Assembly: GCF_018398935.1 (NCBI RefSeq)
Contig: NZ_CP074694.1
Location: forward strand, 3,870,001-3,902,000
Length of the DNA stretch: 32,000 bases
From: Telmatocola sphagniphila
GTDB lineage: Bacteria; Planctomycetota; Planctomycetia; Gemmatales; Gemmataceae
Direction of reading: 5' to 3'
Positions 8,709-26,629 of this stretch are shown here, piece by piece; position 1 is the stretch's first letter, and every line of letters starts with the position of its first letter. Below the pieces are notes generated by a model, which saw only the letters and a list, made by a program, of their open reading frames with translations, made no database searches and was not told where the DNA came from. The translations under genes and the position numbers were made by a program.

Positions 8709-8773
8709 TATCACAGAATGGTATCTATAACCTACACTATTGCATCTGCTACATTTAAAGCACGCCGGATAAG

Positions 8774-9571
8774 TTACCCCTTAAAAATCTTTTGGTTATG
8801 ATAATCCAGGTATTTTTGATTCAGGCTATGCCCTTCAGCAGTCTCCAGTTTCTCCAAATCTAACTCGATAGCTCCAAAATCACACATGGCATGATGGTTC
8901 GGGCAAACGCAGAGGATATTATCGATCACGTCTGGCCCGTTATGAGGGGATCCCAGTGGCTTGATATGATGACCTTCCGCATAGCCCGAGCCGTCTGCAA
9001 GCTTGATACTTACGCCACAGATTTGACATTTGTAGTTGTGAGCCTTCTTAGTCCAATCTGCTAGCCTGGTGTCGCGTACGATCCGATAAGTAGTTGTTGC
9101 TATACGGGCAGGAGGTTCGCCGAGATCCACAGCCAGGGGTGCGTCGGTTAGCTGTTCACGTTGACCGTTGCTTTCGCTTCCAGATGATCGTGCCACATTC
9201 CGCTGGGAAGTCTTACTGTTTTCAATTTCCGTTTTTACCTTATTTGATTGTGCGAGCAGAGTCTTCGCACGTGCAGTCAATTGCCATTTACCTCTTGAAA
9301 CGAGTTCGGCAAAACCGCGACCGGGTTTGTCCCGCATAGAAACAAGATGGCTGCGTGTCGTACTCGCTGAGAAAGTCTCGTCATTTAAAGGGAAATGTTC
9401 TTTTTCCGCTATTTTTCTTGCTGTTTCACCAATGTTCTTTGCCGATTCTGGCTTATTCAGCATCGCCATCGCGCGATGTATAATATGCGTCCGTTTACCT
9501 ATTTCGCCAAAGAGGATATCAAATCTTTTGTTATCGGGATGCATCGGCACGTTAAGTTCATTCTCGGCCAT
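8774..9571 (-). CDS. wHTH (Mrr_N-like) + HNH endonuclease, Type IV restriction-like
   Basis: HNH motif CQICG...GHHIKPL...NILCVCPNHHAMCD lies at nt ~8873-9028, preceded by YRIVRDTRLADW. The N-terminal ...GFAELVSRGKWQLTARAK resembles the end of an Mrr_N winged helix. I moved the start from the TTG at 9592 to ATG 9571 because AAGGAG sits at 9580-9585, 8 nt upstream. Confidence 0.85.
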   Translation of the reverse strand: MAENELNVPMHPDNKRFDILFGEIGKRTHIIHRAMAMLNKPESAKNIGETARKIAEKEHFPLNDETFSASTTRSHLVSMRDKPGRGFAELVSRGKWQLTARAKTLLAQSNKVKTEIENSKTSQRNVARSSGSESNGQREQLTDAPLAVDLGEPPARIATTTYRIVRDTRLADWTKKAHNYKCQICGVSIKLADGSGYAEGHHIKPLGSPHNGPDVIDNILCVCPNHHAMCDFGAIELDLEKLETAEGHSLNQKYLDYHNQKIFKG

Positions 9572-9619
9572 CAGAAGTACTCCTTTTAGCAAGAATTAAT
9601 TTTCGAATTAGATTGTAGC

Positions 9620-10483
9620 CTACCCCAGATACTCCCTCAACTCATTGAACGGATAGAACCAGGCCGGTTGCGGTGCATTGACCGGCTCCTTCAGCTTCTC
9701 GAATCGTATCGGTTTTCGGAGATACCACTCGCCCCCCTGGCGCGTCCTTTTGCTGTCATACAAATCGACTGAACCGATCAGGACCCCTCGTGGCAAATCA
9801 TCGACGAGTATATCCCGAATACCGTAGTCTGCCATATCCATCATTTCGTGTTCAAAGGGACTTCTGCCTTTGGCGGCATAAATCATAACTCTGCCCCGGA
9901 CCTTGGTTTCTTTCGAGCGATACTCGATATCCTTAATCCCGCGCATGATCGCCTCCGCATGCGGCTGGCGAATGCTCAACGCGTGCACCGGCGTGTAATG
10001 CTCGAGAATTTTTCTCAGTTGTTTGTGTTCTCTGGGATCTATCTCCTCGAGCTTCAGTAGGGTTTTGATGATTTCCTTTGGATCTCCGGGTGGCTTGTGC
10101 GATCGGGCCAGCTCAAGCAGTGTCTCGGTATAACGAAGATCGGAAATATCGCGGAAACCCACCAAATTTCCGCAACTGACTTTGAACTTTTCGAAAGCGG
10201 CCCCTTTTAATTCTTGCGGTGGAGCCAGTTGCCAGCCTTTACCTCCCAATTCGAAATCATCGTGGGCTTTTCTGCGCTTACCAGACTGAATTCGAAAGGT
10301 TTCCCAGAGAAAATACCGGCGTGGCCGCCCGATACCCACAATGAGAAAAACCTGACCAGTGGCCTCGAGCGCATTGGGAACTTTCGTATGAATTGTTAGT
10401 TCGGTAGCGTCAAACGGAGTTTCAGAATTTTCAAACGGCAGCAAGGTCGAAGTGGAATTGTGGTACTGGACGTAGTAGTTCAT
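9620..10483 (-). CDS. ASCH (PUA-like) domain protein with an unknown ~165-aa N-terminal domain
   Basis: 287-aa ORF ending 27-48 bp upstream of the HNH gene on the same strand. The C-terminal half ALSIRQPHAEAIMRGIKDIEYRSKETKVRGRVMIYAAK...GVLIGSVDLYD has the ASCH pattern (nt ~9659-9991). The N-terminal MNYYVQYHN... domain was not recognised. Confidence 0.8.
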   Translation of the reverse strand: MNYYVQYHNSTSTLLPFENSETPFDATELTIHTKVPNALEATGQVFLIVGIGRPRRYFLWETFRIQSGKRRKAHDDFELGGKGWQLAPPQELKGAAFEKFKVSCGNLVGFRDISDLRYTETLLELARSHKPPGDPKEIIKTLLKLEEIDPREHKQLRKILEHYTPVHALSIRQPHAEAIMRGIKDIEYRSKETKVRGRVMIYAAKGRSPFEHEMMDMADYGIRDILVDDLPRGVLIGSVDLYDSKRTRQGGEWYLRKPIRFEKLKEPVNAPQPAWFYPFNELREYLG

Positions 10484-10645
10484 CTGATTCGATCCTCTAT
10501 TTGATTGACGAAAATTATGCCTGAATTTTCAAACTTTGTTGCATTTTTCGGAGTCTGCAATTGCTGGAACTTTTCCTCATCGCATAATAGCCACTCTGGG
10601 TAGGACTTTTTGCTTACGCCGCCGATAGATCCCTCAGGGCCCGCG

Positions 10646-13600
10646 ATGAACAACCCTTTCTTTGATCAGCCTATACTGAATTCTCCTTACGAGTACCCCA
10701 CCCGTCACTGGGAACTCGATTCCGAAGGTCAGCCGACCCAGAAAATTCTGGAAACTCGACGCCGGGCAAGTTTCATCACGCCGATACCAAAGCCCAAAAA
10801 ACGAAAAGCGAAAACCGCACAACAGGAGATGATCTTCGATGAGGGGCTGGGGCTCTCAAATGAAAAGCAGCAATACGATCAGACTTCAATGATCAATGAG
10901 GTCCGGTCCTTCGTCGATCAGTGGCGACGGCTATCGGACAACAGCAGCTGGGGCGTTACGCCGCAGACCGCCCGGCTCCTAAAACACTGGCGGCATCACC
11001 GGTTCAGCGCTATTCGACCCTTCTTTTGCCAGATCGAAGCTGTGGAAACGGCGATCTGGCTCAGCGAAGTGGCTCCCAGCTTCGCAGCCGGTCGCAAAGT
11101 CCTCGAAAATCTTCAAGCGGCCAATCAGGATGCCAACCCCGAACTGTTTCGCATCGCTCTCAAGCTGGCTACCGGGGCCGGCAAGACGACCGTCATGGCC
11201 ATGCTGATCGCCTGGCAAACGGTCAACGCCGTTCATCATGAAAATAGCAAGCTGTTCACCCGAGGCTTCCTGATTGTCGCGCCGGGTCTCACAATCAAGG
11301 AGCGGTTGGGCGTTTTACTTCCCAACGACGCCAACAGCTATTACTCGAATTTTGAACTCGTCCCCGCTGACATGCTCGAAGACATCAAACGAGCAAAAAT
11401 AGTCATCACCAATTATCACGCTTTCCGGCTACGGGAAAGAACCGACGTTTCTAAAGGAACCCGAGCTGCGCTCGAAGGCTGGCGAAAGGAAGAACTCAAG
11501 ACGCTGGAAACCGAAGGCCAGATGATCCAGCGGGTCATGCCCGACCTGATGAATATGAAAAACGTTTTGGTCATCAACGATGAAGCTCATCACTGCTATC
11601 GGGCGAAGGTCCAAGATTCCGATGAAGAAGAACTGACCGGCGAAGAAAAAGATGAAGCGACTAAGAATAACGCCAAAGCGCGCCTCTGGATTTCCGGACT
11701 GGAAACGGTTAAGCGTCAACTGGGCGTCAACCGCGTTTACGACCTTTCCGCCACACCATTCTTCCTGAGAGGTTCCAACTACGCCGAGGGCACCCTATTC
11801 ACCTGGACGGTCAGCGATTTTTCTCTGATGGATGCCATCGAAAGCGGCATCGTCAAACTCCCACGCGTTCCTGTCACCGACAATATCCCCGGTCAGGAAA
11901 TGCCGATGTTCCGGAATCTCTGGGAGAATATCCGAAAAGATATGCCCAAAAAAGGTCGGGGTAAGAATGCGGAGCTAGATCCGCTGAAGCTGCCCACGCG
12001 ACTCAAAACGGCGCTCGAAGCCCTGTACGGCCACTACGAAAAGACTTTCAAACTTTGGGAAGACGCCGGCATCAAAGTCCCGCCCTGTTTCATCATCGTT
12101 TGCCAGAATACCGCCATCTCTAAACTGGTCTTCGATTACGTTTCCGGTTTCCAGCGAACCAATCCCGATGGCACGACGAGCCTGGAGAATGGCCGACTCG
12201 CCCTGTTTCGCAACTTCGATGAAACCACTGGTAACCCCTTGCCTCGGCCGAATACATTGCTGATTGACAGCGAGCAACTCGAAGCCGGCGATGCGCTCGA
12301 TACCAACTTCCGTGCCATGGCTTCGGATGAAATCGAACGCTTCCGCCGGGAGTTGATCGAGCGAACAGGCGATCAGCACGCCGCGGACAGCATCACCGAT
12401 CAGGCACTGCTGCGCGGGGTCATGAATACCGTCGGCAAACCGGGTCGGCTCGGCGGCAGTATTCGTTGCGTGGTTTCGGTCGCCATGCTCACCGAAGGCT
12501 GGGACACCAACACCGTTACTCACGTGCTCGGCGTGCGGGCCTTCGGCACACAACTTCTCTGCGAACAGGTGATCGGTCGAGCACTCCGCCGCCAATCTTA
12601 CGAAATCAACGAAGACGGCCCGAACCAAGGGCTCTTCAATGTGGAATATGCGGACATCTTCGGCATTCCGTTCGATTTTGCGAGCAAACCGACGATAGCA
12701 GCCCCTCAGCCTCCGCGAGAGATTATCCAAGTCAAAGCCATGCGGCCCGAACGCAATGCGTTGGAAATTCGCTTCCCTCGCGTCGAAGGCTATCGCGTTG
12801 AATTGCCCGAAGAGCGATTGGAAGCGGTGTTCAACGACGATTCAAAGTTTGAGCTCACACCGGAAATCGTCGGCGCTTCCAAAACGCAAAACGCTGGTAT
12901 CATCGGCCAAGTCGCGGAAATGAGTCTCGAACACTTGCAAGACTACCGACCTTCCACCATCGTCTATAAGGTCACCGAACGGCTGCTCTACACCAAATTC
13001 CGCGATCCGGGACAGGATCCCCCCTTGAATCTGTTCGGCCAATTGAAACGCATTGTTAAACAATGGCTCGATACCTGTCTGGACTGCAAAGGGGGCACCT
13101 ACCCAGCCCAGTTAATAGATCCGGCCCTGGCCGACATTGCCTGCAATCGCATCATCTCAGCGATCACTCGGAAACATCAGGACAAGAATCCGATCAAAGC
13201 CATGCTGGATCCTTACAATCCGGCCGGTTCGACGATGTTCGTCCGCTTCAACACTTCCAAACCCGATCGCTGGGAAACGGCGGCCCACAAATGTCATGTG
13301 AATTGGGTCATTCTGGATAGCGATTGGGAAGCGGAGTTCTGCCGGGTGGCGGAAGCTCATCCCAAAGTGTTTTCCTATGTCAAGAACCACGGCCTGGGAT
13401 TCGAAGTCCCCTACCAGTTCGGCTCGGAAAATCGCAAGTACCGGCCCGATTTCATTGTTTTGATCGACGATGGGCGTGGGCCAACGGACCTCTTGCATTT
13501 AGTTGTGGAAATCAAAGGATTTCGGCGGGAAGACGCCAAGGAGAAGAAATCGACGATGGACACCTATTGGATTCCAGGCGTTAACCAGCTGGGCAGCTTC

Positions 13601-13729
13601 GGTCGCTGGGCCTTTGCCGAGTTTCGCGATGTCTACACGATCGAAAGCGATTTCGAAAAGAAACTCAAAGCCGAATTTGAGAAGTTGATCGACTCGGCGG
13701 TCAGTCTGCGAGTGGGGGCAAAGAGATAA
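10646..13729 (+). CDS. res: Type III-like restriction enzyme Res subunit (SF2 helicase + C-terminal PD-(D/E)xK nuclease)
   Basis: Walker A ATGAGKT is at 11168-11188 and DEAH at 11579-11590. Further helicase motifs are DLSATPF and MLTEGWDTNTVTHVLG...GRALRR. The C-terminal nuclease motif is PDF...VVEIKG at 13448-13516. ATG 10646 (MNNPFFDQPILNSPYEYP) is preferred over the TTG at 10610. Confidence 0.9.
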   Translation: MNNPFFDQPILNSPYEYPTRHWELDSEGQPTQKILETRRRASFITPIPKPKKRKAKTAQQEMIFDEGLGLSNEKQQYDQTSMINEVRSFVDQWRRLSDNSSWGVTPQTARLLKHWRHHRFSAIRPFFCQIEAVETAIWLSEVAPSFAAGRKVLENLQAANQDANPELFRIALKLATGAGKTTVMAMLIAWQTVNAVHHENSKLFTRGFLIVAPGLTIKERLGVLLPNDANSYYSNFELVPADMLEDIKRAKIVITNYHAFRLRERTDVSKGTRAALEGWRKEELKTLETEGQMIQRVMPDLMNMKNVLVINDEAHHCYRAKVQDSDEEELTGEEKDEATKNNAKARLWISGLETVKRQLGVNRVYDLSATPFFLRGSNYAEGTLFTWTVSDFSLMDAIESGIVKLPRVPVTDNIPGQEMPMFRNLWENIRKDMPKKGRGKNAELDPLKLPTRLKTALEALYGHYEKTFKLWEDAGIKVPPCFIIVCQNTAISKLVFDYVSGFQRTNPDGTTSLENGRLALFRNFDETTGNPLPRPNTLLIDSEQLEAGDALDTNFRAMASDEIERFRRELIERTGDQHAADSITDQALLRGVMNTVGKPGRLGGSIRCVVSVAMLTEGWDTNTVTHVLGVRAFGTQLLCEQVIGRALRRQSYEINEDGPNQGLFNVEYADIFGIPFDFASKPTIAAPQPPREIIQVKAMRPERNALEIRFPRVEGYRVELPEERLEAVFNDDSKFELTPEIVGASKTQNAGIIGQVAEMSLEHLQDYRPSTIVYKVTERLLYTKFRDPGQDPPLNLFGQLKRIVKQWLDTCLDCKGGTYPAQLIDPALADIACNRIISAITRKHQDKNPIKAMLDPYNPAGSTMFVRFNTSKPDRWETAAHKCHVNWVILDSDWEAEFCRVAEAHPKVFSYVKNHGLGFEVPYQFGSENRKYRPDFIVLIDDGRGPTDLLHLVVEIKGFRREDAKEKKSTMDTYWIPGVNQLGSFGRWAFAEFRDVYTIESDFEKKLKAEFEKLIDSAVSLRVGAKR

Positions 13730-13731
13730 TC

Positions 13732-16515
13732 ATGGCCAAGAAACCTACCCCGAAAATGTCGGTCGAAACGATCTCGCATAAAGACGACAAGCGGAAGAAC
13801 ATCCCGACGGCCGAATTTCAGTCCGTGTTGAAGCAGGAGCAACAATCGCCCATGAAAGTCCATTACGAACGCCGCAACCGGGATCTTGATCCCCAGCTGG
13901 TCTGGCGCGGTAAAGACGAGCAGGATTGGAGCGATCTGATCGCTCCCGCACCGCCCATCTACATCCAGGAAAAAGTTCATCCCAAATCTCTCATTGACGA
14001 TCTCCTGAGACAAACGGAAGAGTCTGGGAAAAAAGACAAAAGCCAAGGACCCGATCTCTTCAGCGACTTCAACGGCATACCAGAAGGCGCTGACAAAACC
14101 GACTTCTACCATCACGACGGCCACTGGTCGAACAGGATGATCCTGGGCGACTCGCTCCAGGTGATGGCCAGCTTGGCGGAACGCGAAGGATTACGAGGAA
14201 AAGTGCAGTGCATATATTTCGATCCGCCTTACGGCATCAAGTTCAACTCGAATTTTCAGTGGTCGACGACCAGCCGCGATGTGAAGGATGGCAAGGCGGA
14301 CAACATCACTCGCGAGCCGGAACAGGTGAAAGCCTTCCGCGATACCTGGCGCGATGGGATTCACAGTTACCTGACCTACTTGCGGGATCGATTGACGGTG
14401 GCTCGGGATTTGCTGACGGAATCAGGCTCGATCTTCGTACAGATCGGGGATGAAAATGTGCACCGCGTCCGGGCGGTAATGGATGAAGTTTTTGGAGAGC
14501 AGAACTTCATCAGCCAAATCACAATTCAGACAACAACTGGGTTTGAGGCGACCTATCTCGGAAACATGTCGGATCACGTGCTTTGGTATGGCAAGAGGAA
14601 GGAAATTGGTCGCGCAAACCCGCCGTTGTTTCGGAAGAATTTTGAACTTGGCGAAGGGAATGCGCGTTGGCTACTTTTTGACGACTTTTCCTACCGTGGA
14701 GTCAGCGCTGAAGAGAAGCGTGGAGAAAAGTCCATACCAATCGGCGCGAAACCGTACAAGCCAGACAACATTCTCTCGCAAGGACGAGCTAAGGAACCTC
14801 AACCGTTCGAGTTTAGAGGTCGGACGTATGACAGTTGGGGAAAGAACTCCCATTGGAAAGCAAATTATCCTGTTGGCATGTTGCGTCTCGCGAAGGCCAG
14901 CAGAATCCACGTTGCGGAGAATTCAATTCAGTACGTGCGACTGCATACCGATTTCGAAGCTAGCGTTCATGGCAACATGTGGTTTGATACCGGCTCCGGC
15001 AATTTCACAGACGAAAAACTCTATGTCGTACAGACGAATGCTAAGGTTATAGAACGTTGCATTCTCATGGCGACGAACCCCGGCGATCTTGTTCTCGATC
15101 CCACCTGCGGATCAGGAACTACAGCCACGGTGGCCGAGCAATGGGGTCGGCGCTGGATAACGATTGACACTTCGCGAGTCGCCTTGGCGCTGGCCCGAGC
15201 CCGAATCATGGGCGCACGCTACCCCTACTACATTCTTGCCGATTCCCGTGAAGGTCAGTTTAAGGAAGCAGAACTCTCCGGTCGAATCGCCTCATCGCAG
15301 CCGGTTCATGGCAGTATTCGACAAGGGTTTGTTTACGAGCGAGTGCCGCATATCAGCTTAAAATCGATTGCCAAAAATGCAGAAATCGATGTCATCTGGG
15401 AAACGTGGCAGCAAGAACTGGAACCGCTGCGGGAAGCTCTCAATAAAGCCTTGAAGCAGAAGTGGGAAGAGTGGGAGATTCCTCGAGAAGCCGATGCGAA
15501 ATGGCCGGAAAAAGCGAAGGGGTTCCATAAGGATTGGTGGCAGGCACGAATTTCCCGACAGAAGGAAATCGACGCCTCGATTGCCGCTAAGGCGGAATTT
15601 GAAAAACTCTACGACAAGCCCTATGAGGACAAAAAGAAGGTTCGTGTGGCCGGGCCGTTTACGGTGGAGAGCCTGAGCCCCCATCGTATGCTAGGCGTCG
15701 ATGAAAACGATGAATTGATCGATCCGAAAAAGAATCTGCATGTGGAGCACCAGAGCTTCGAGCAGATGATTCTGGAAAATCTTCGAACTGCCGGCGTGCA
15801 ACAGGCCCACAAGGAAGACAAGATTTCTTTCACTTCGCTCGCTCCTTGGCCGGGAAAGTACATCTGTGCCGAAGGCCGTTATCTCGAAGCAGAGAAGGAG
15901 AAGCGAGCGGGCGTTTTCATTGGTCCCGAATTCGGCACCGTTCAAAGGCAGGATCTCGTGGTGGCGGCTCGGGAAGCTGGAGATGCCGGTTTCGATGTGC
16001 TGATTAGCTGCGCGTTCAACTACGAGGCCCATACCACCGAGTTCTCCAGTTTGGGCCGAATACCCGTTCTGAAAGCCCGCATGAATGCCGACCTGCACAT
16101 GTCGGACGAACTGAAGAACACAGGCAAGGGCAACCTGTTTGTGATCTTCGGGGAACCGGACATTGAGCTGATACCTGAGAAAAACGGTCAGCTCCGAATC
16201 AAAGTGAAAGGCGTGGATGTGTTCAAGCCTCAGACCGGCGAAGTGGTCAGTTCGAACACGGACGAGATCGCCTGCTGGTTCATCGATACCGACTACAACG
16301 AGGAGAGTTTCTTCGTCCGTCACGCCTACTTTCTCGGAGCAAGCGATCCTTACAAGAGCCTGAAAACAACCTTGAAGGCAGAGATCAACGAGGAAGCCTG
16401 GGAATCTCTGCATAGCGATATTTCCCGGCCATTTGACAAGCCGAAATCGGGCCGGATCGCCGTGAAGGTGATCAATCATCTGGGGGATGAGGTCATGAAG
16501 GTGTTCGGGGTGTAA
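13732..16515 (+). CDS. mod: Type III-like Mod subunit, beta-class N6A/N4C DNA methyltransferase (927 aa)
   Basis: DPPY (motif IV) lies at 14221-14232, upstream of motif I VLDPTCGSGTT at ~15091-15123; this order defines the beta class. The start is 2 nt after the res stop. The long C-terminal region ends ...GRIAVKVINHLGDEVMKVF, which I recall as typical of this long MTase family. Confidence 0.9.
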   Translation: MAKKPTPKMSVETISHKDDKRKNIPTAEFQSVLKQEQQSPMKVHYERRNRDLDPQLVWRGKDEQDWSDLIAPAPPIYIQEKVHPKSLIDDLLRQTEESGKKDKSQGPDLFSDFNGIPEGADKTDFYHHDGHWSNRMILGDSLQVMASLAEREGLRGKVQCIYFDPPYGIKFNSNFQWSTTSRDVKDGKADNITREPEQVKAFRDTWRDGIHSYLTYLRDRLTVARDLLTESGSIFVQIGDENVHRVRAVMDEVFGEQNFISQITIQTTTGFEATYLGNMSDHVLWYGKRKEIGRANPPLFRKNFELGEGNARWLLFDDFSYRGVSAEEKRGEKSIPIGAKPYKPDNILSQGRAKEPQPFEFRGRTYDSWGKNSHWKANYPVGMLRLAKASRIHVAENSIQYVRLHTDFEASVHGNMWFDTGSGNFTDEKLYVVQTNAKVIERCILMATNPGDLVLDPTCGSGTTATVAEQWGRRWITIDTSRVALALARARIMGARYPYYILADSREGQFKEAELSGRIASSQPVHGSIRQGFVYERVPHISLKSIAKNAEIDVIWETWQQELEPLREALNKALKQKWEEWEIPREADAKWPEKAKGFHKDWWQARISRQKEIDASIAAKAEFEKLYDKPYEDKKKVRVAGPFTVESLSPHRMLGVDENDELIDPKKNLHVEHQSFEQMILENLRTAGVQQAHKEDKISFTSLAPWPGKYICAEGRYLEAEKEKRAGVFIGPEFGTVQRQDLVVAAREAGDAGFDVLISCAFNYEAHTTEFSSLGRIPVLKARMNADLHMSDELKNTGKGNLFVIFGEPDIELIPEKNGQLRIKVKGVDVFKPQTGEVVSSNTDEIACWFIDTDYNEESFFVRHAYFLGASDPYKSLKTTLKAEINEEAWESLHSDISRPFDKPKSGRIAVKVINHLGDEVMKVFGV

Positions 16516-16522
16516 GGGCAAC

Positions 16523-16586
16523 TTTATACCAAATTATTGCCATTTATAGCAAAAATCAGATATAAATAGATATAAACGGATATAAA
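16523..16586. promoter_or_regulatory. Helically phased TATAAA/TTTATA repeat array directly upstream of the AAA+ ATPase gene
   Basis: GATATAAA occurs three times at exactly 10-bp spacing (16559-16566, 16569-16576, 16579-16586), ending 6 nt before ATG 16593. Two inverted copies (TTTATA) lie at 16523-16528 and 16543-16548, 20 bp apart. All of this sits inside the 77-bp mod-ATPase gap. Confidence 0.5.
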
Positions 16587-16592
16587 GCCACA

Positions 16593-17780
16593 ATGGACGC
16601 ACTCAAAAACCCCTTTTCTCCTGGTGCCGGATCCCCGCCTCCGGAGTTGGTAGGTCGGGATCCTATTCTAAAGGAAGCAAGAATTTTATTAGGACGGGTG
16701 AAGCAAAAAAAACCTGAAAAAAGCTTACTTTTGACCGGTCTTCGCGGCGTAGGTAAGACAGTCCTGCTGAACGAGATCGAACGAGATGCGAAGGAAGAGG
16801 GCTATCTGACGATCAATATTGAGGCGCATGAAGATAAAGCGTTAGGGCCTCTGATCGCACCTTACTTAAGAAGTTTGCTCTTCGAATTAAATAGAATGGC
16901 GGGGGCCATTGAGAAAGTTAAGCGTGCCTTCGCAGTGTTAAGCAGCTTCGTAAAAAGCCTGAAGGTCAAGATGGGGGACTTTTCATTAGGGCTAGATATA
17001 GAACCTGAAAAAGGCACTGCTGACAGTGGGGATTTGGAGCTGGATCTACCAAGTCTATTCGTGGCGGTCGGGGAAGCGGCAGAGGACCGCAAAAAAGCGG
17101 TCGCGATATTCGTTGATGAAGTACAATATTTTAGTTCCAAAGAACTTGGTGCATTGATAATGGCAATGCACAAGGTTCAACAGCTTCAGCTTCCTTTGGT
17201 ACTTGTAGGGGCTGGCCTCCCAATTTTACCCGGACTCGCCGGAGAATCCAAATCGTATGCTGAGAGGCTTTTCAGCTTTCCAGAGATCGGGGCACTCTCC
17301 AAAGAAGATTCAGCAAAAGCACTCCGAGATCCAGCTAAAGCTTCTGGAGTGATCATTGAGCCAAGTGCGCTTGAGAAAGTTTTTCTTCTAACGAAAGGTT
17401 ATCCTTATTTCGTACAAGAATGGGGCTATCAAGTATGGAATCTTGCTGAATCCAGTCCTATCGGCGTTCGAGTGGTTCAGAAAGCAACTGAGCTGGTAAT
17501 CCCTCGTTTGGATAAGAATTTTTTTCGTGTTCGATACGATCGATTGACACCGAGTGAAAAAAATTTTCTGAGAGCTATGGCGAGCTTGGGAAATAATTCT
17601 CAAAGAATTGGCGATATCGCGGACAAACTCCAAGTGAAAGTAACGAGCCTAAGCCCCGTTAGGGCTAAGCTGATCCACAAAGGAATGATCTATAGCCCAG
17701 CTCATGGAGAAATGGCTTTTACGGTTCCCCTTTTTGATGAATTTATGATCCGATCTATTCCGGTATTAAAATCTAAATAG
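16593..17780 (+). CDS. ORC/Cdc6-like AAA+ ATPase (ATPase_2/AAA_16 type) with C-terminal winged helix
   Basis: ELVGRD...LLLTGLRGVGKTVLL carries the Walker A at 16737-16760. AIFVDEVQYF is the Walker B. The C-terminal LTPSEKNFLRAMASLGNNSQRIGDIADKLQVKVTSLSPVRAKLIHKGMIY is wHTH-like. Confidence 0.85.
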   Translation: MDALKNPFSPGAGSPPPELVGRDPILKEARILLGRVKQKKPEKSLLLTGLRGVGKTVLLNEIERDAKEEGYLTINIEAHEDKALGPLIAPYLRSLLFELNRMAGAIEKVKRAFAVLSSFVKSLKVKMGDFSLGLDIEPEKGTADSGDLELDLPSLFVAVGEAAEDRKKAVAIFVDEVQYFSSKELGALIMAMHKVQQLQLPLVLVGAGLPILPGLAGESKSYAERLFSFPEIGALSKEDSAKALRDPAKASGVIIEPSALEKVFLLTKGYPYFVQEWGYQVWNLAESSPIGVRVVQKATELVIPRLDKNFFRVRYDRLTPSEKNFLRAMASLGNNSQRIGDIADKLQVKVTSLSPVRAKLIHKGMIYSPAHGEMAFTVPLFDEFMIRSIPVLKSK

Positions 17781-17790
17781 CGAGATCATT

Positions 17791-19869
17791 ATGGAATTTC
17801 GGATCGCCGACACATTTTCCAATAGCCTAGCCAAACTCACGGGTGAGGAGCAAAAGGCGGTCAAAACTACCGCCTTCGATCTTCAACTGAATCCCTCCAA
17901 TCCCGGGATGTCATTTCACAAATTGGACCGGGCTAAAGATAAAAACTTCTGGTCTGTACGCGTCAACAAAGACATACGCGTAATTGTTCACAAAACAACC
18001 GGCAGTTTGCTCCTTTGCTATGTCGATCATCACGATAAAGCTTACGACTGGGCCTCCCGAAGGAAGCTGGAAACGCATCCCAAGACCGGGGCCGCCCAAC
18101 TCGTTGAGATTCGCGAGACCGTTCAGGAAATACGCATTCCGAGTTATGTCCAGGAGCCCAAATCCAAGGCGAAATCCAGTAAGAAATCCCTTTTCGATCA
18201 GCTTCCCGATGAGGAGTTACTCGGATTTGGAGTTCCCCAGGAATGGCTAGCCGATGTCAAATCGGCCACGGAAGACAACTATCTCGCGGTTGCCGACCAT
18301 CTTCCGGCCGAAGCCGCGGAAGCCTTGCTGGAGATTGCCACCGGCGGTAAACCGAGAATTTCGAAACCCACTCCGGCGACGGCAAATCCCTTCGAGCATC
18401 CGGATGCCCTCCGACGCTTCCGCGTCATGGGCAATGTCGCAGAGCTGGAACGAGCGCTCGATTATCCCTGGGAGAAATGGACGGTCTTTCTGCACCCGGA
18501 GCAGAGAGAACTCGTCGAGAAGAATAATTCCGGTCCGGCAAGAGTGACCGGTTCGGCCGGAACCGGCAAAACCATTGTGGCTTTGCACAGGGCAGCACAT
18601 TTGGCCCGCACGAATCCCACTAGCCGGGTGTTGTTAGCGACTTTTTCCAATGCTCTGGCGCATGCCCTTCAAACTAAGTTGCGTCGATTGCTAGGTAATG
18701 AACCCCGCCTGGGAGATCGTATCGATGTCTATTCGCTGGAGGCACTCGGCTTGCGACTCCACGAACTGCATCTCGGCAAAGCCAAGCTGGCGAGCCGAAG
18801 CGAAGTCGTTGAACTGATGAAACGTGCATCGCAGGAAGCCGATAAACATAAGTTCAATATGCAGTTCTTGCTGTCGGAATGGGATCAGGTGGTGGATGCC
18901 CGACAGGTGAATAGTTGGGAAGCTTACAGAGACGTGACGCGACTGGGCCGCAAGACTCGCTTGAATGAAGCACAGCGCCAGCTGCTTTGGTCGATTTTTC
19001 AAAAAGTCATCGAAGCTTTGAGTCGCCAGAAGTTGACGACTAGCGCGGGAATCTTCACTCGACTTGCAGATGCGATCGCCAAAGTTCCGAACAAACCGTT
19101 CGATTTCGCCGTGATTGACGAGGCCCAGGATCTCACCGAATCGCAGATTCGATTCTTTGCGGCCCTGGCCGGCAATAAGCCGAACGGACTGTTCTTCGCC
19201 GGAGATAGTGGACAGCGGATCTTTCAACTGCCGTTCTCCTGGCAAAAATTGGGAGTTGATATTCGAGGTCGCTCCAAGAATTTGCGAATCAATTACCGCA
19301 CCTCCCACCAGATCCGGAGCCAGGCCGATCGTTTGCTGGAAGTCGAAGTTCGGGATGTCGACGGAAATGTCGAGCAAAGAAACGACACCATTTCCGTGTT
19401 CAATGGACCTCCGCCGGCGATCAAAACTGCAGCGGATGAAAAAGAGGAAATCAAGATTGTCGGGAGTTGGCTATCGGAGTTAATCGCGACGGGAATTCAA
19501 CCCCATGAATGCGGCGTGTTCGTTCGATCTCCTGAACAGATTGATCGGGCAAAAAATGCAGTCCAACATGCCAAGTTAACGGTAAAAATTCTCGATGAGA
19601 ATGTGGAAACGGTAGCCGGCCAGGTTTCGATCTGCACGATGCATCTGGCTAAGGGTTTGGAGTTCCGGGCCGTAGCGGTTATGGCCTGTGATGATGAGGT
19701 GATTCCGCTGCAGTCTCGAATCGAAGCAGTTGGTGAGGATTCCGATCTGAAGGAAGTCTATGAGACGGAACGACAACTCTTGTACGTGGCGTGCACCCGA
19801 GCTCGAGACTCCTTGTTGATTACGGGAGTGGATCCCGCTTCCGAGTATCTGGATGATATGAAACAGTGA
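17791..19869 (+). CDS. UvrD/Rep-type SF1 helicase with N-terminal RelE/ParE-fold-like domain
   Basis: The start is 10 nt after the ATPase stop. Helicase motifs are GSAGTGKT (18550-18573), FAVIDEAQDL, NYRTSHQI, TMHLAKGLEFRAV and LLYVACTRARDSL. N-terminal aa 1-~95 (FSNSLAKLTGEEQKAV...LNPSNPG...FWSVRVNKDIRVIVHKTTGSLLLCYVDHHDKAY) follow the RelE/ParE toxin pattern. Confidence 0.9.
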   Translation: MEFRIADTFSNSLAKLTGEEQKAVKTTAFDLQLNPSNPGMSFHKLDRAKDKNFWSVRVNKDIRVIVHKTTGSLLLCYVDHHDKAYDWASRRKLETHPKTGAAQLVEIRETVQEIRIPSYVQEPKSKAKSSKKSLFDQLPDEELLGFGVPQEWLADVKSATEDNYLAVADHLPAEAAEALLEIATGGKPRISKPTPATANPFEHPDALRRFRVMGNVAELERALDYPWEKWTVFLHPEQRELVEKNNSGPARVTGSAGTGKTIVALHRAAHLARTNPTSRVLLATFSNALAHALQTKLRRLLGNEPRLGDRIDVYSLEALGLRLHELHLGKAKLASRSEVVELMKRASQEADKHKFNMQFLLSEWDQVVDARQVNSWEAYRDVTRLGRKTRLNEAQRQLLWSIFQKVIEALSRQKLTTSAGIFTRLADAIAKVPNKPFDFAVIDEAQDLTESQIRFFAALAGNKPNGLFFAGDSGQRIFQLPFSWQKLGVDIRGRSKNLRINYRTSHQIRSQADRLLEVEVRDVDGNVEQRNDTISVFNGPPPAIKTAADEKEEIKIVGSWLSELIATGIQPHECGVFVRSPEQIDRAKNAVQHAKLTVKILDENVETVAGQVSICTMHLAKGLEFRAVAVMACDDEVIPLQSRIEAVGEDSDLKEVYETERQLLYVACTRARDSLLITGVDPASEYLDDMKQ

Positions 19870-19953
19870 AAGCCGACTTGAAGATTTCGGAAATGATCGA
19901 TCCGCATAATGACCGACTCTTTCGGCTTTAAACCGTCGCCGCAGGAACATGTC

Positions 19954-20685
19954 ATGCGAATCGCCACTTACAATCTGCTCAAAGGAGGCACAAAACGGAC
20001 TCATTGGAAAGAGATGATCGAAAGTCATCTTGTCGATCTTCTACTTACACAGGAATCCGCCAGGCCTGATCTGCACCTTACGCCGGATATGTTCCCTGAC
20101 TTTCAGAAGCAATTCGTCTGGGAGATGTCTGAAAACAAAGGCTGGGGAAGTGCGATATTCTCTCGGGATGGAAGGCTGGAAGCCATACAGGTGCCAGGCT
20201 TCTCGGGCTGGGCGGTCGGGGCGAAAATCACGAATGCTACGTGGCAGCGGGATTTATGCGAATCGATCTTTGTGTTTAGCCTGCATGCTCCAGAGCTAAT
20301 GGGCGGGTATGCAAAGGCCGTGAACAAATTTCTGGATGAAGTGAAAATGATCGCCGGTCAGAATGAGGTCATCATCGGAGGCGATTTCAACCTGACTGTA
20401 AGCCGTTGGTTGAGTCCGGAAAAAAAGATCAGCAAACATGATCTGGCTATCCAAGCCCGACTTGCCGATGAATTTGCATTGATGAACTGCTGGCAGGAGG
20501 CGAATCCCGGCCAGGAGCTCCATCAGACACTTCGTTGGACAAACAACCGGGAAACGGTTTACCACTGTGACGGGATCTTCGTTCCGAAAAGCTGGAAGTC
20601 TCGGCTGCAATCTTGCAGAGTGCTTTCGGGAGAAGAATGGGATCGACTAAGTGATCACAACCCGGTGGTGGCAACGTTTGGGTAA
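19954..20685 (+). CDS. Endonuclease/exonuclease/phosphatase (EEP) family protein
   Basis: The ORF starts MRIATYNLLKGG and contains IIGGDFN and LSDHNPVVATF (~20649-20675). ATG 19954 is preferred because EEP proteins usually start at this strand. ATG 19909 is an in-frame alternative. Confidence 0.85.
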   Translation: MRIATYNLLKGGTKRTHWKEMIESHLVDLLLTQESARPDLHLTPDMFPDFQKQFVWEMSENKGWGSAIFSRDGRLEAIQVPGFSGWAVGAKITNATWQRDLCESIFVFSLHAPELMGGYAKAVNKFLDEVKMIAGQNEVIIGGDFNLTVSRWLSPEKKISKHDLAIQARLADEFALMNCWQEANPGQELHQTLRWTNNRETVYHCDGIFVPKSWKSRLQSCRVLSGEEWDRLSDHNPVVATFG

Positions 20686-20810: not shown

Positions 20811-22163
20811 TTAATTTGTTGCCTGGATTCTCAGCCACTCCCTAGCCACTTTGATCGCCTCGCGCCGCTGCATTGCTTCGGTCAATTGTTCCCGAATCGT
20901 GCCGGCCTGGGTATGCGTATACACAGCCGTCATCCCTAATCCGTGACTCGAATTGCGATCTGAAGAGATCGAGTGCCCCATTAAGAGATTTCGGATGATC
21001 GGATCCACGCGGCCTTCCTGCAGGGTAGTGGCGAACATATGACGAAGAACTTTCGGTGCGGACTGGTGACTGAGGCCTATGGCCTGTGTCACATGCGTGA
21101 ATTCAATACGCAGTCGATCTTCCTGAAGGGCCCCCATCTCGTTCCAGAGTGCTCGAGCGATTCTGAGCTTTTCTATTCTTTCCAAGGCCCTTTTAGCTCG
21201 CAGCTCTTCTCGCACCATTCGTAGGTTTAGTTCCCTTTCGATCATCGCTTGGGAAGCGGTAACCAAGTTCCTCGGCCCTGAATTCCAAGTGCTTCGCCGG
21301 AACAGGGGACCTGAAGGGTAGCGGGAAACATGCAATTTCAGCACTTCCACTAATTCCGGAACCAGTGGGATATCGCGTTCGTTCCTTGTCTTGATCTGCC
21401 AACCGAGCCGCGGCTTATTTCGAATTCTCAAGCTGCCTTTTTCGAGATCGATATCTTCCGGAACCAAGAGGTGGCACATCTCTCCTGGTCGCATACCCGT
21501 GAGCATAAGAGTCAGAAAAATCGGAAATTGCCATTCGTCGCACTGCTGCAAAAAGACTCGCTCTTCTTCCGGTTTGAATAATTCAATCGGTCGGAATTCT
21601 TCGATAGGAATTCGATCGATATTGAGCACTTGAAACGGATTTTCTGCATAGGGGCTCAAATAGCGTCGTTTTTTGGCGTAGCTAAAAAGAGTTCGGCAGG
21701 TTTCCAGGACGTAAATCAAACCGCCGTCCAGAAGTGGACGCTTGATCGTCCGTTCATGTCCATTCGGTGAGACGCGGATGGAACGTAGATAGGCGACGAA
21801 TTCCGCAGCGTGAGATGGAGTAAATTGGGCGATCGTCCTCACCGGTTTTAGGTCGAGGAATCTCAGCAAATGATCCGTTGCAGTGCGGTAACGATGGATC
21901 GTATTGATCGAGGATCGGGAAACCTGTTCGTGATGTTCGAGCCATTGCTGTCTGGCTTTTTCGATCGTGATACTTTCGAAGCTCAACGCGGCGGGTGCTC
22001 CGACATCCAACTGCGAGTTGATTTGCGAAGCGAGTTGGCGGGCGGCATTCCGGTCGGGACCTACCCGAGGGCGGTGCCGTCGCCCTTGTTCGTTGTAACA
22101 GAGATACCAAATTTTGCCGCGACGATACCCTCGAACTTTACCAATGCGGAACTCATTCGACAT
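20811..22163 (-). CDS. int: Tyrosine recombinase / phage-type integrase
   Basis: The N-terminal SAM-like region is followed by a catalytic domain: LTGMRPGEMCHL (Arg), VLRHMFATTL (H-x-x-R), LMGHS and GMTAVYTHT (Tyr). ATG 22163 (MSNEFRIGKVRGYRRGKIWYL) has GAGG 5 nt upstream. The listed 22214 start adds an implausible MWQFLWHF leader. Confidence 0.9.
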   Translation of the reverse strand: MSNEFRIGKVRGYRRGKIWYLCYNEQGRRHRPRVGPDRNAARQLASQINSQLDVGAPAALSFESITIEKARQQWLEHHEQVSRSSINTIHRYRTATDHLLRFLDLKPVRTIAQFTPSHAAEFVAYLRSIRVSPNGHERTIKRPLLDGGLIYVLETCRTLFSYAKKRRYLSPYAENPFQVLNIDRIPIEEFRPIELFKPEEERVFLQQCDEWQFPIFLTLMLTGMRPGEMCHLLVPEDIDLEKGSLRIRNKPRLGWQIKTRNERDIPLVPELVEVLKLHVSRYPSGPLFRRSTWNSGPRNLVTASQAMIERELNLRMVREELRAKRALERIEKLRIARALWNEMGALQEDRLRIEFTHVTQAIGLSHQSAPKVLRHMFATTLQEGRVDPIIRNLLMGHSISSDRNSSHGLGMTAVYTHTQAGTIREQLTEAMQRREAIKVAREWLRIQATN

Positions 22164-22221
22164 GCGTGCCTCAGAGATTTCTCCCGCCACAAAATGCCAC
22201 AAAAACTGCCACAAACGGGAT

Positions 22222-22272: not shown

Positions 22273-22443
22273 CAACCAAAGAAATGAAAAAACGGAGAGG
22301 GGGGGATTCCATTTTGGCGTCTCTCTAACTCCCTGTCATTTCGGTACTTGTGGCGATAAAGCTATATGCGACTTGTAGTTGCAGGATGTCAGGAATAGTC
22401 AGCGATACTCAGGGATTCTCACGATTTTCAGCCTGATTGGCAC

Positions 22444-22466
22444 ACTGTGCCAATCATTTTTCGCTG
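22444..22466. promoter_or_regulatory. 23-bp perfect palindrome (candidate operator or recombinase binding site)
   Basis: The sequence is TGATTGGCACA-C-TGTGCCAATCA, with 11-bp arms and no mismatch. It ends 27 nt upstream of the likely serine-recombinase ATG at 22493. Confidence 0.5.
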
Positions 22467-22492
22467 CAATCTCCCTTGTGGAGTTGTTGCTC

Positions 22493-24430
22493 ATGAGTTT
22501 CCATAGATCGTCGATTCCATTGACACCAAGACGAGGTACCGTCTTGAAGGTGCTGGCCATCACTCGGATCAGTACCGAACACCAGGACGTTCGTAGCCTG
22601 GATGAACAAGCCCTACTCATCAGACAGTTCATGGAGCGTTCCTACTCGGGTCCCTTCAACTTAGAAGAGATACGCTCTCAGGGAAGTGGCGAACGACTGG
22701 ATAGAGCTGAATTTCTCGAAGCTCAAGAAAGAGTAAGGAGCAGACAATTTGATGTGGTTTGTTCCGAAGACCTCGCACGAATCTGCCGGCGTGCAGATGC
22801 CTTCCGGTTTGCCGAATTGTGCGAGGATTTTGGTGTCCGGCTCATAACCATAAACGATCGCCTGGACACGGCAACAGATGGCTGGCGAGACAGTGCCTTT
22901 CTGTCGACTTGGCACCACGAACGAAGCAATCTCGAAACATCCCAACGCATAAAGCGTACTTTACGGGGCAGATTTCAGACAGGTGGCGTTGTTCCGTGCC
23001 TCATCGCCGGATATCGTCGCGTGCCGGGTGTCGAGGGTGAAGCTGGCCTACAAAAAATAGCGGAATGGGAGCCTATTTATGATCAATGGTTTCGGATTTT
23101 GGAAGAAGGGGGCAGTTTTGCGGAAGTCGCTGACTGGTTGAATGAACGTCATATATCAGTCGGACCCGCATCCCGGGGAACTAGCTGGACCGGGACGATG
23201 GTGGGGAGAATAACCAGAAACCCTTTATTGAAAGGCATCCGGCAACGAAATGTCCGAGAGAGCCGTCGCATTAATTCAACGGGCCAGCATCGAAGTGTCC
23301 GTGCTGATCCCTCGCAGTTGCTGGTACGGAATTGCCCTCATCTAGTGTTCATCGCCCCAGATCGTTTTGATCGCTTGATGAGGCGAATCGACGAAATTAA
23401 TGCAATGTATCGGCGTCAGGGCACCGATGGTCGTGATTCTCGTGAGGGGTTACCGCGTTCAAGGACACCCTGGCCAGCTCAACATGCAAAATGTGGAATC
23501 TGCGGGCGAATCCTCTATAGAACTCAAAGTAAATCGATTCCCATGCTGCAGTGCTCCGGCGCTCAAGCCTACAAATGCTGGAACGCTGTCACTGTAAACG
23601 CGAATGTTGCCGCCCGAAAAATTCTGGAAGCCATTCTCCGAAAACTTCGAGAACTTCCTGAATTCGACTCGCTACTTCTTCAAAATATTCGGCAACAGCT
23701 TCAGGCCAGCTCTGAGGCGGATCATTCGCGCGTTCCCACTCTGGTTTCTGAAATCGAAGACCTGCGACGGCGAATGCGCAATCTTTCACTGGAAGTTGCC
23801 GAGAACGGTGGGAATGAGACCTATCGGGCGACGCTCAGAGAATTACAAGGGATACTCGACCTAAAAACCGAGGAGCTTAGTCACCGTTCAGCACCCCCGC
23901 GGGAAGTTTTGTTCCCTACTTTAAGGTCGCTGGAACATCATTTGCAGAATCTTCTAGCTGACCCGGAACTTGATGACCCCGAGTTAGCCCGAATTCTTCA
24001 CCGGTTCGTTAACAGATTGGAATTCTATCCTATTCAAGCTTGTAATGGTGGCGCGATAGAGTTACGAGCGCATCTTGAGATTCGATTGGATCAGTTGCAG
24101 CTCGATTCGGATCTGCATCAACTGCCCGCAGAAATTACCACGCACTCAATGGAAGTAGATCTGTTCGATTACCCGGCTCAAATCCGAATTCGATCTGAGG
24201 CTTTGCGCTTGACAGCGGAACGATGGAAGCAAAGAGATATAGCCAGGCATCTGGGTACTCACCAAGCCACAGTGCAACGGGCAATCAGCTTGGAGAGAGC
24301 CATGCAAAATCTGGGATTATCCGATCCCTATATTCGATTAACGCAAGCCCCACAAAACGACAGCAAGATAAGGCGGCACTTGCATCCGAGATATTCGTTT
24401 GAACCACTTGCAGAACGCACTGCGGCCTAG
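22493..24430 (+). CDS. Large serine recombinase
   Basis: The resolvase-type catalytic N-domain is VLAITRISTEHQDVRSLDEQ (Ser nucleophile in RIS). A recombinase domain and a zinc ribbon (CGICGRILYRT...LQCSG...YKCWN) follow, then a coiled-coil region. ATG 22493 is preferred; the listed 22379 start would run through the palindrome. Confidence 0.9.
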   Translation: MSFHRSSIPLTPRRGTVLKVLAITRISTEHQDVRSLDEQALLIRQFMERSYSGPFNLEEIRSQGSGERLDRAEFLEAQERVRSRQFDVVCSEDLARICRRADAFRFAELCEDFGVRLITINDRLDTATDGWRDSAFLSTWHHERSNLETSQRIKRTLRGRFQTGGVVPCLIAGYRRVPGVEGEAGLQKIAEWEPIYDQWFRILEEGGSFAEVADWLNERHISVGPASRGTSWTGTMVGRITRNPLLKGIRQRNVRESRRINSTGQHRSVRADPSQLLVRNCPHLVFIAPDRFDRLMRRIDEINAMYRRQGTDGRDSREGLPRSRTPWPAQHAKCGICGRILYRTQSKSIPMLQCSGAQAYKCWNAVTVNANVAARKILEAILRKLRELPEFDSLLLQNIRQQLQASSEADHSRVPTLVSEIEDLRRRMRNLSLEVAENGGNETYRATLRELQGILDLKTEELSHRSAPPREVLFPTLRSLEHHLQNLLADPELDDPELARILHRFVNRLEFYPIQACNGGAIELRAHLEIRLDQLQLDSDLHQLPAEITTHSMEVDLFDYPAQIRIRSEALRLTAERWKQRDIARHLGTHQATVQRAISLERAMQNLGLSDPYIRLTQAPQNDSKIRRHLHPRYSFEPLAERTAA

Positions 24431-26613: not shown

Positions 26614-26629
26614 CCCCAGGGAAAAAACC

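Follow-up and report, generated by a model that had tools for sequence, protein, structure and literature searches.

Genes at the locus

The window analysed here is a 32,000-nucleotide (nt) stretch of the Telmatocola sphagniphila genome (contig NZ_CP074694.1, positions 3,870,001 to 3,902,000), in which five genes on one strand encode, in order, a restriction endonuclease (Res), a DNA methyltransferase (Mod), an AAA+ ATPase, a helicase with a RelE-like N-terminal domain, and an EEP-fold protein (Table 1). Our reading, to which we assign a probability of about two in three (0.66), is that Res, Mod and the helicase, which resembles ArmD of the ARMADA type II system, form a three-gene Type III-like restriction-modification (RM) system on an integrase-flanked island, with the ATPase as an independent cassette lodged in the junction between Mod and the helicase, and the EEP gene as an unrelated neighbour outside the system.

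The original prediction, made from the DNA alone, had described five tightly packed, co-directional genes, and the open reading frames (ORFs) indeed lie in this arrangement, separated by gaps of 2, 77, 10 and 84 (or 39) nt. It had also noted the lack of a convincing terminator between them; a consensus scan likewise shows all four intergenic gaps to be free of terminator-like sites, and its plus-strand matches (14466, 19137 and 19236) are all intragenic. The start of Res at ATG 10646 agrees with its homologues, an upstream TTG at 10610 being unsupported, and the EEP gene most likely starts at 19954, since members of its family are ~243 amino acids (aa) long. The predicted domain assignments proved correct by matches to Pfam, NCBIfam and PADLOC models, with weak matches for the ORC/Cdc6-like character of the ATPase, and the Walker A/B, DEAH, PD-(D/E)xK, DPPY and S-adenosylmethionine (SAM) motifs are all intact across the five-gene region.

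Table 1. Features of the five-gene region and its neighbours, in window coordinates (SF1 and SF2, helicase superfamilies 1 and 2).
Feature	Coordinates	Strand	Description
Res	10646-13729	+	SF2 ATPase and PD-(D/E)xK nuclease, BPTD_3080 family; proposed core gene 1
Mod	13732-16515	+	beta-class amino-methyltransferase; proposed core gene 2; begins 2 nt past the Res stop
ATPase leader	16524-16592	+	promoter-like boxes ahead of the ATPase ATG
AAA+ ATPase with C-terminal winged helix	16593-17780	+	proposed cargo of the Mod-helicase slot
ArmD-like RelE-like::UvrD helicase	17791-19869	+	proposed core gene 3
EEP-fold protein, ~243 aa	19954-20685 (alternative start 19909)	+	PF03372; beyond the conserved system
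Tyrosine integrase	20811-22214	-	PF00589
Large serine recombinase	22379-24430	+	PF00239 and PF07508
HNH protein	8774-9592	-	HNH_2; divergent from Res
ASCH-domain protein	9620-10483	-	ASCH at 23.2 bits; divergent from Res

Residues 6-1006 of Res score 1351.8 bits, where the cutoff is 800, with the NCBIfam model NF046055 ('BPTD_3080 family restriction endonuclease'); Res also matches PF04851 at 36 bits and, weakly and under its cutoff, PF19778 at 19.2 bits. Its SF2 motifs comprise GAGKT at residue 177, DEAH at residue 312, SAT at 368 and QxxGRxxR at residue 641, and they are followed by a C-terminal PD-(D/E)xK nuclease (D935...E-I-K). Mod, a protein of 927 aa, matches PF01555 at 113 bits and the PADLOC MTase_III model PDLC03632 at 1378.6 bits, with its DPPY motif (aa 164) ahead of the SAM motif CGSG (aa 459). 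In the Mod alignment the ends are conserved and the centre, presumably the target-recognition region, is variable. The last ~80 residues of Mod are almost invariant. Conservation within Mod is highest there, and within the helicase it is highest in the first ~110 residues.

The helicase comprises a RelE/YoeB/HigB-like domain (residues ~1-95), a linker, and a UvrD/SF1 core (residues 234-692; PF00580, UvrD, and PF13361, UvrD_C) bearing a Walker A motif, GSAGTGKT, with K260, and DEAQD at 443. Searched alone, the N-terminal domain scores 27.1 bits with PF05015 (HigB-like_toxin), just above the cutoff of 27, and among 18 diverse relatives it matches HigB-like_toxin in 15 and ParE_like in 8. Its best PDB profile match is RelE3 (E=0.026), a single-sequence PDB search with the N-terminus returned nothing useful, and hhalign aligned it with a manually entered YoeB sequence at E=1.8e-4, pairing FWSVRV..DIRVIV with FWSRRI..EHRLVY. 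Residues S55, R57, R63, H81, D82, Y85 and W87 are kept even in relatives of 25-36% identity. On these profile matches we assign residues 1-95 to the RelE/ParE superfamily. No small antitoxin-like ORF adjoins the helicase gene. The AlphaFold2 model of the helicase, built from 20 near-identical homologues, is too poor for fold arguments, with a predicted local distance difference test score (pLDDT) of 61.6 overall and below 50 at the N-terminus.

Co-inheritance of Res, Mod and the helicase

The comparison set comprised 165 related loci from ~18 phyla, and across all of them the order and strand of Res, Mod and the helicase are constant. A helicase-seeded set of 85 loci was searched by tblastn with the five window proteins; a Mod-seeded set came from an independent metagenome scan with the Mod alignment and contains 57 informative loci and 23 that are too short to judge. 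Helicase homologues, 61-72% identical, occur across ~18 phyla, including Planctomycetota, Verrucomicrobiota, Nitrospirota, Acidobacteriota, Pseudomonadota, Chloroflexota, Bacillota, Armatimonadota and Spirochaetota, and a one-genome-per-species collection holds at least 590 helicase loci. Phages contain no close helicase homologue, the best match being partial and 26% identical, and the complete genomes of E. coli contain no match to the enterobacterial copy (L026).

Wherever upstream DNA is available, the helicase is preceded on the same strand by a Mod (62-70% identical), and this in turn by a Res (64-76% identical). Among the helicase-seeded loci with a full 10 kb of upstream DNA, Mod is present in 39 of 40, and the fortieth has an N-terminal fragment of Res. 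Starting instead from Mod, the helicase is found downstream in 50 of the 57 informative loci. At 30 of 112 loci the Mod-helicase junction is tight (at most 40 nt from the end of the Mod match), the helicase typically beginning 2-17 nt past the Mod stop, and a plasmid of Pseudomonas avellanae even has a 1-nt overlap between them. A bare three-gene operon is carried by the P. avellanae plasmid p1NCPPB4222 (NZ_CP091148, 18967-27027). Since no gene family recurs downstream of the helicase, we take it to be the 3' end of the unit. The comparison shows Res, Mod and the helicase to be co-inherited in a fixed order, forming an operon whose spacers measure 2 nt when no cargo is loaded.

The three proteins also diverge together. 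Over 55 complete loci, the distance matrices of Res and the helicase correlate at r=0.75, and those of Res and Mod and of Mod and the helicase at r=0.47 and r=0.49, respectively (Mantel p<=0.001 in each case), the lower values for Mod probably being due to its variable central region. The value of 0.75 hints at direct co-adaptation of Res and the helicase, at swapping of the Mod recognition domain, or at both.

The original prediction had joined the RM pair to all three genes downstream of it and had called for their synteny to be compared across genomes. This linkage holds for the helicase, which tracks Res and Mod. It fails for the ATPase, which fills just ~5 of 112 Mod-helicase junctions, and for the EEP gene, which is in none of the 165 loci. 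Neither of the two units then envisaged, a five-gene composite or an RM pair with a separate trio, fits the conserved Res-Mod-helicase arrangement. A two-gene RM system stacked beside an independent ATPase-helicase-EEP system could be read from the window itself, where the 77-nt gap between Mod and the ATPase is AT-rich and contains promoter-like TATAAA boxes, and just 10 nt separate the ATPase from the helicase. Elsewhere, however, the helicase directly follows Mod with no ATPase or EEP gene (30 loci) or follows other cargo (~76 loci), and the trio never recurs (165 + 30 loci). With the correlation between Res and helicase distances also speaking against it, such stacking is barely credible.

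Among BPTD_3080 systems on complete plasmids, the helicase co-occurs only with the subclade of Res proteins that are at least ~52% identical to the window Res. Public databases label the helicase homologues '3'-5' exonuclease' (NCBI, many members) or 'mRNA-degrading endonuclease RelE' (JGI), and because neither label reflects an RM-linked helicase role, automated defence surveys likely miss the third gene. This changes what counts as the unit: in hundreds of species from ~18 phyla, the third gene of a restriction system encodes a toxin-domain helicase, yet genome annotation calls it an exonuclease.

Decay products and a distant relative were also seen. In one locus an N-terminal Res fragment is fused directly to the helicase (L019, 9362-12109), in another the helicase is cut off after 114 codons, beside a variant of the ATPase (L136, 14723-15064), and the Methylibium plasmid pT29A (L102) has a lone Res followed by a Tn3 transposase. 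On plasmid p1 of Sphingobium sp. CAP-1 (L105, 7980-16707), a Res of 32% identity is followed by a giant 1937-aa DUF3320 helicase that is not ArmD-like, from which it appears that another BPTD_3080 branch has recruited a different large helicase.

Cargo at the two junctions

Both junctions within the unit are frequently occupied by further genes. We called a slot loaded when the gap exceeds 250 nt and tight when it is at most 40 nt (Mod-helicase) or at most 120 nt (Res-Mod). By these definitions, 81 of 112 Mod-helicase junctions are loaded (72%) and 30 are tight, with a median of 1.8 kb and a maximum of 7.9 kb in the loaded state; the corresponding numbers for the Res-Mod junction are 40 loaded (39%) and 60 tight among 103 loci, with a median of 1.1 kb and a maximum of 4.6 kb. 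Of 213 cargo ORFs with a length of 100 aa or more, 201 point the same way as the operon. The cargo is diverse, its 231 ORFs falling into 130 clusters, most of which lack annotation.

Many cargo genes are known defence genes. Matches include IetA with IetS (252 and 115 bits), SIR2 with HerA (521 and 883 bits), Hachiman HamB (815 bits), Dsr1 (1647 bits), a 1710-aa PrimPol-reverse transcriptase of the DRT kind (171 bits) and a DrmD-like SNF2 helicase (580 bits). Further matches are DUF1016/PDC-S02 (428 bits), PDC-S05 (ORF6N; 185.5 bits), PDC-S13 (Bro-N; 388.8 bits), Fic/SoFic (131 bits), DUF262/HEC-06 (257 bits), a DpdB-like protein (44.5 bits) and an OLD/ABC-type ATPase (up to 85 bits; NsnB, AriA), and Schlafen-AlbA2 plus winged-helix proteins are found as well. 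Comparison of the loci shows both junctions to be recurrent insertion slots for co-directional cargo, much of which consists of known defence systems.

The commonest cargo, present in the Mod-helicase slot of 10-12 loci, is a set of three genes encoding proteins of ~254, ~180 and ~140 aa (loci including L014, L022, L024 at 8282-9979, L047, L050, L055 and L071). The first belongs to the TIGR04255 family (113 bits), and the second and third have only a weak PDC-M32A match; the set is a candidate for an undescribed defence cassette. Scars of exchange, in the form of duplicated 5' fragments of the helicase gene beside cargo, are seen in two loci (L145 and L108), and the Mod and helicase remnants around ATPase copies in L186-195 and L090-92, described below, belong with them. 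Cargo may be swapped by recombination, for which, we infer, the conserved 3' end of Mod and 5' end of the helicase would serve as homology arms. The slots thus offer a natural experiment in guilt by embedding, and a focused place to seek new defence genes, because unannotated clusters sit there beside Hachiman, Dsr1, SIR2-HerA, IetAS, SoFic and reverse transcriptases.

The ATPase as a movable cassette

The window ATPase contains an AAA_16 domain (57.6 bits), with Walker A GLRGVGKT and Walker B FVDEVQ, and has a weak MarR-type winged helix-turn-helix match (E=8e-3) and a weak match to TIGR02928, orc1/cdc6 (E=1e-3). Its AlphaFold model, built from 27 near-identical homologues, is too poor for fold arguments (pLDDT 56.8); the top Foldseek match of this model of pLDDT 57 is Cdc6/Orc1 (2qby_A) at a template modelling (TM) score of 0.35, which is weakly consistent with an ORC/Cdc6-like AAA+ fold plus a winged helix. 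PADLOC models for PDC-S01, PDC-S20, mad8 and PtuA match at the P-loop only, those for PtuA and PDC-S01 at E>1e-5.

The ATPase occupies the Mod-helicase slot in ~5 of 112 loci, namely the window, L012, L020 and L033 (68-76% identical) and L039 (52%). A variant of 52% identity stands after the helicase in L145 and after the truncated helicase in L136. The family as a whole is abundant, with copies of 75-80% identity across many metagenomes, and is present on 94 plasmids; none of the top 20 of these is an RM-plus-helicase plasmid. Seven independent contexts without an intact RM-helicase unit were distinguished (L089, L090-92, L093, L186-195, L200, L201 and L202). Of these, L089, L093 and L200-202 have no trace of an RM system; copies lacking any such trace lie in a Nitronereus genome, on another chromosome, and on Protochlamydia, Legionella and Polaromonas plasmids. 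The ATPase often adjoins toxin-antitoxin pairs.

In the two other contexts, where the ATPase had looked stand-alone in toxin-antitoxin islands, parts of the system have been left behind. In L186-195 (e.g., L186, 4330-6298), the ATPase lies between what is left of Mod (aa 727-927, 82-85% identical) and of the helicase (aa 1-35), in the order Mod-ATPase-helicase, and in L090-92 (8001-9517) an intact ATPase is followed by 5' and 3' fragments of the helicase. The ATPase therefore outlasts decaying RM systems, with the Mod-helicase slot clearly one of its usual homes. The idea that the ATPase is wholly unrelated to the system was revised on account of these remnants flanking some stand-alone copies.

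The ATPase also has a leader of its own. In the window, this consists of TTTATAcc...ATTATT followed by three GATATAAA boxes at intervals of 10 nt, and stops 6 nt short of the ATG; in the family it is a stretch of ~70 nt in which TTTATAGC...ATTAT precedes three to four (G/T)TATAAA boxes, again at 10-nt spacing and just ahead of the ATG. The leader is kept across phyla, inside or outside RM loci (L012, L020, L033, L089, L091, L093 and L200-202), Protochlamydia, Legionella and Polaromonas plasmids included, and has no Rfam match. It is presumed to be the ATPase's own promoter or operator, possibly an operator for the protein's own winged helix. Because every copy carries the same conserved leader, we consider the ATPase a self-contained cassette, and the distribution of its copies marks it as movable cargo and not a core gene. 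Its role is probably that of a distinct module of the defence or addiction type, and its recognisable regulatory leader goes with a candidate for a gene that works by itself.

The EEP gene

The EEP protein matches PF03372 at 37.3 bits and none of the PADLOC models, and no homologue occurs in the 165 Res-Mod-helicase loci. Relatives of ~60% identity were found in six other contexts, including L094/95, L096, L097, L196 and L197. No RM system lies nearby in L094/95, where the gene string starts with an SF1 helicase, or in L097 and L196. We rejected the possibility that the EEP gene belongs to the backbone of one specific mobile element that is also present in the window, as homologues of the other window genes are absent from the loci with EEP relatives. 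The EEP gene is probably a defence-island or mobile-element gene that lies outside the system.

Comparison with known systems

The original prediction did not recognise the set of components as any named system, and PADLOC models give no system-level match to the window proteins either. The literature searched describes neither a BPTD_3080-type Res-Mod pair that is combined with an ArmD-like helicase nor its cargo slots, and contains no paper on BPTD_3080. Each ingredient nevertheless has a precedent: Type III RM systems, the third ATPases of Type III systems, ArmD in ARMADA II, and PrrC-like embedded genes. In terms of these, Res-Mod-helicase is a Type III-like RM system with an ArmD-like third subunit and internal slots for defence cargo.

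The likeness to Type III RM systems of the EcoP15I/EcoPI type lies in the Res architecture (an SF2 ATPase with a C-terminal PD-(D/E)xK nuclease), in the adjacent beta-class Mod with its DPPY motif before the SAM motif, and in the variable central region of Mod. Here, however, res precedes mod, Mod has 927 aa and is conserved over a long C-terminal stretch, and both junctions take cargo. In the subclade with Res proteins at least ~52% identical to that of the window, moreover, the pair is nearly always joined by a third gene, for an SF1 helicase that bears a toxin-like domain. Among Type III systems, Murray et al. 2021 (PMC8259958) described the BspHIV/Eco86II group, which similarly combines Mod and Res with an extra helicase-like ATPase, consistently and in >500 genomes. 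That ATPase is SF2-like, is encoded 5' of mod and has no toxin-like domain, whereas the extra protein of the window system is of the SF1/UvrD type, carries a RelE-like domain and is encoded 3' of mod.

The closest architectural parallel to the helicase is ArmD of ARMADA type II, which also has an N-terminal RelE-like domain on a GajB-like UvrD helicase of ~700 aa and is encoded by the last gene of a methylase-plus-helicase/nuclease operon. The window helicase is 30-37% identical over its full length to the helicases of ARMADA-II-type loci and shares their architecture, for which reason we call it ArmD-like; the two clades have diverged by >60% in sequence. These distant relatives sit after DruE/YprA-like giant helicases, SNF2 helicases and PglX/IIG-like methylases, and their plasmid hosts include Thermus, E. 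coli, Cylindrospermopsis and Haematobacter. Defence by ARMADA II needs all four of its genes and is abolished by the Walker A substitution K266A in ArmD (PMC12458937; PMC13463889). The corresponding Walker A lysine is kept in the window helicase as K260, together with the conserved RelE-type residues.

The system is nevertheless not ARMADA, because ArmA, ArmB and ArmC are absent. In place of ArmA (SNF2), ArmB (PglX-like) and ArmC (YprA-like, DUF1998) there are a Type III-like Res and Mod: no SNF2 gene lies within 10646-20685, Mod matches Type III models and not PglX, and no window protein matches the DruE, DrmA or DpdJ models that would indicate an ArmC-type YprA-like helicase. It thus appears that ArmD-like helicases are portable and partner at least two methylation-based systems that are unrelated to each other, namely ARMADA II and a Type III-like RM system, and the role of the ArmD-like helicase, once found, would explain both.

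The analogy with BREX and DISARM that had been drawn from the sequence did not hold up, given the lack of PglZ, BrxC, DrmA/B and YprA-like proteins; the models for PglZ, BrxC, PglX, DrmA, DrmB and DrmC are unmatched by the nine window proteins. With Gabija the resemblance is partial. PADLOC GajB models match the helicase at up to 97 bits, and an end-sensing UvrD-type partner of a nuclease provides a working analogy, but the match covers the helicase core only, GajB has no RelE-like domain, and none of the nine window proteins matches GajA (an OLD-family ATPase-TOPRIM protein). The slots, finally, recall the variable genes, such as PrrC, embedded between conserved subunit genes of Type I RM systems. 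PDC-S families and Fic are classes typically embedded in Type I loci, and PDC-S02, S05, S13 and Fic are all found as cargo here. The difference is that the carrier here consists of three genes in a Type III-like operon, that its two defined slots are highly loaded (72% and 39%), and that the cargo includes whole multi-gene systems such as Hachiman, IetAS, SIR2-HerA and Dsr1.

Weighing the three-gene reading

Several observations weigh against a three-gene system, including those in which Res and Mod do without the helicase. In 7 of the 57 informative Mod-seeded loci the helicase is absent from the 10 kb downstream (in 3 of these 7, the genes after Mod lie on the opposite strand), and a Rhodococcus BPTD_3080 system, whose Res is 38% identical to that of the window, is a plain Res-Mod pair; the RM pair can hence exist without a helicase. 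The third ATPase of the BspHIV/Eco86II group, moreover, proved dispensable in vitro, being unnecessary for methylation and absent from partially purified enzyme (PMC8259958), so that guilt by association may overstate the coupling of the helicase. What the helicase and its RelE-like domain do is, besides, inferred and not observed.

These observations would suit a helicase that is itself a very common cargo, or a stand-alone GajB-like or toxin-type gene, at the 3' edge of the RM pair and independent of Res and Mod. The gene is evidently modular, since its distant relatives serve ARMADA II, and the GajB matches point the same way, as do the more distant BPTD_3080 systems that lack it. Yet the helicase gene invariably comes last and on the same strand, and lies translationally close to Mod if nothing fills the slot; in the window clade it never occurs without an RM system or RM remnants (40/40 loci), and its distances track those of Res more closely than the distances of Mod do. 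In ARMADA II, ArmD alone gives no defence (PMC12458937). On this balance, independence of the helicase is unlikely.

Other observations concern the two genes that the three-gene reading leaves out. Remnants of Mod or the helicase accompany the ATPase in 2 of its 7 contexts without an intact RM-helicase unit (L090-92 and L186-195), and the ATPase may thus be more tied to the system than ordinary cargo. The EEP gene, for its part, is late or last in co-directional strings that start with a Type III-like RM system in the window and in two further loci: in L096 (1-8732) the string is headed by a distant BPTD-like Mod-Res pair, and in L197 (1-13012) by an SNF2-Mod-Res set, with a RecD2-like helicase following the EEP gene. 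It may be loosely linked in function to Type III-like clusters, or the association may be a coincidence.

Taken further, these ties would make all five genes one composite, methylation-linked defence system, similar in logic to BREX or DISARM, in which the ATPase, the helicase and the EEP protein are obligatory partners. The shared strand, the short gaps and the absence of terminator-like sites between the genes would fit such a composite, and ArmC of ARMADA II, a system with a related ArmD, is said to contain an EEP domain (PMC13463889). The synteny counts, however, already largely refute it: the ATPase fills ~5 of 112 slots, 30 loci are free of cargo, and the EEP homologue is in none of the 165 loci. 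The ATPase, furthermore, brings a leader along and is found by itself on plasmids that show no RM trace, and the hallmark BREX and DISARM proteins are missing, as described above. We regard the five-gene composite as highly improbable.

Proposed mechanism

In the three-gene system that we favour, acquired horizontally on an integrase-flanked island, Mod would methylate one strand of an asymmetric site and so mark self DNA. A complex of Mod and Res would cleave invading DNA that lacks this methylation, through the SF2 ATPase and the PD-(D/E)xK nuclease of Res and in the manner of Type III enzymes, whose ATP-dependent cleavage needs two inversely oriented unmethylated sites and is prevented by hemimethylation. 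The helicase would act with or after Res, most probably by loading onto the nicks or ends that Res makes and unwinding the target. Both GajB and UvrD act on DNA termini. Should restriction fail or be inhibited, the RelE/YoeB-like domain could add an arrest of translation at the RNA level.

A stronger version, which we put forward tentatively and hold to be possible at somewhat less than even odds, is that the three components form a distinct and widespread immune system in which an obligatory helicase couples Type III-like restriction to RNA arrest by its RelE/YoeB-like domain, and that the operon has evolved into a dedicated carrier that takes up and exchanges other defence systems at its two internal junctions, between extremely conserved coding ends. 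If this were true, the unannotated genes in the slots, including the window ATPase and the TIGR04255-led set, would be new defence genes.

The RelE-like domain could alternatively be held in check by the RM pair in the manner of a guard. Res and Mod would then silence the helicase, and an anti-restriction protein would free the RelE-like domain to cleave mRNA and bring about abortive infection, with no part in DNA cleavage. PrrC, embedded in the Type IC EcoprrI locus, is a precedent (PMC12707154), and the conservation of catalytic-type RelE/YoeB-like residues and the tight co-evolution of Res with the helicase are in line with such an arrangement. There is, however, no evidence of RNase activity for the RelE-like domain or for ArmD, and the intact helicase core, along with the need for the ArmD ATPase, suggests an active role on DNA. 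A guard of this kind is decidedly unlikely.

Flanking genes

Because genes for a tyrosine integrase and a large serine recombinase come after the EEP gene, the whole cluster is probably on an integrated island, of which these two genes likely mark the right edge. The island edges are without an Rfam family, a tRNA or a meaningful direct repeat. On the other side, divergent from Res, the HNH protein matches the PADLOC model mREase_IV (Type IV methyl-directed restriction endonuclease; E=3.5e-7) and an NCBIfam phosphorothioate-DNA restriction endonuclease model at 47.9 bits, which is under the model's cutoff. Together, the HNH and ASCH-domain proteins may make up a further defence pair of this island. 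Just past the recombinases, on the plus strand (25483-28006), a MoxR-type AAA ATPase gene (PF20030, bpMoxR, 172 bits) overlaps a weakly matching vWA gene (PF13519, 20.6 bits, under the cutoff), a pairing that is the signature of MoxR-vWA ternary conflict systems.

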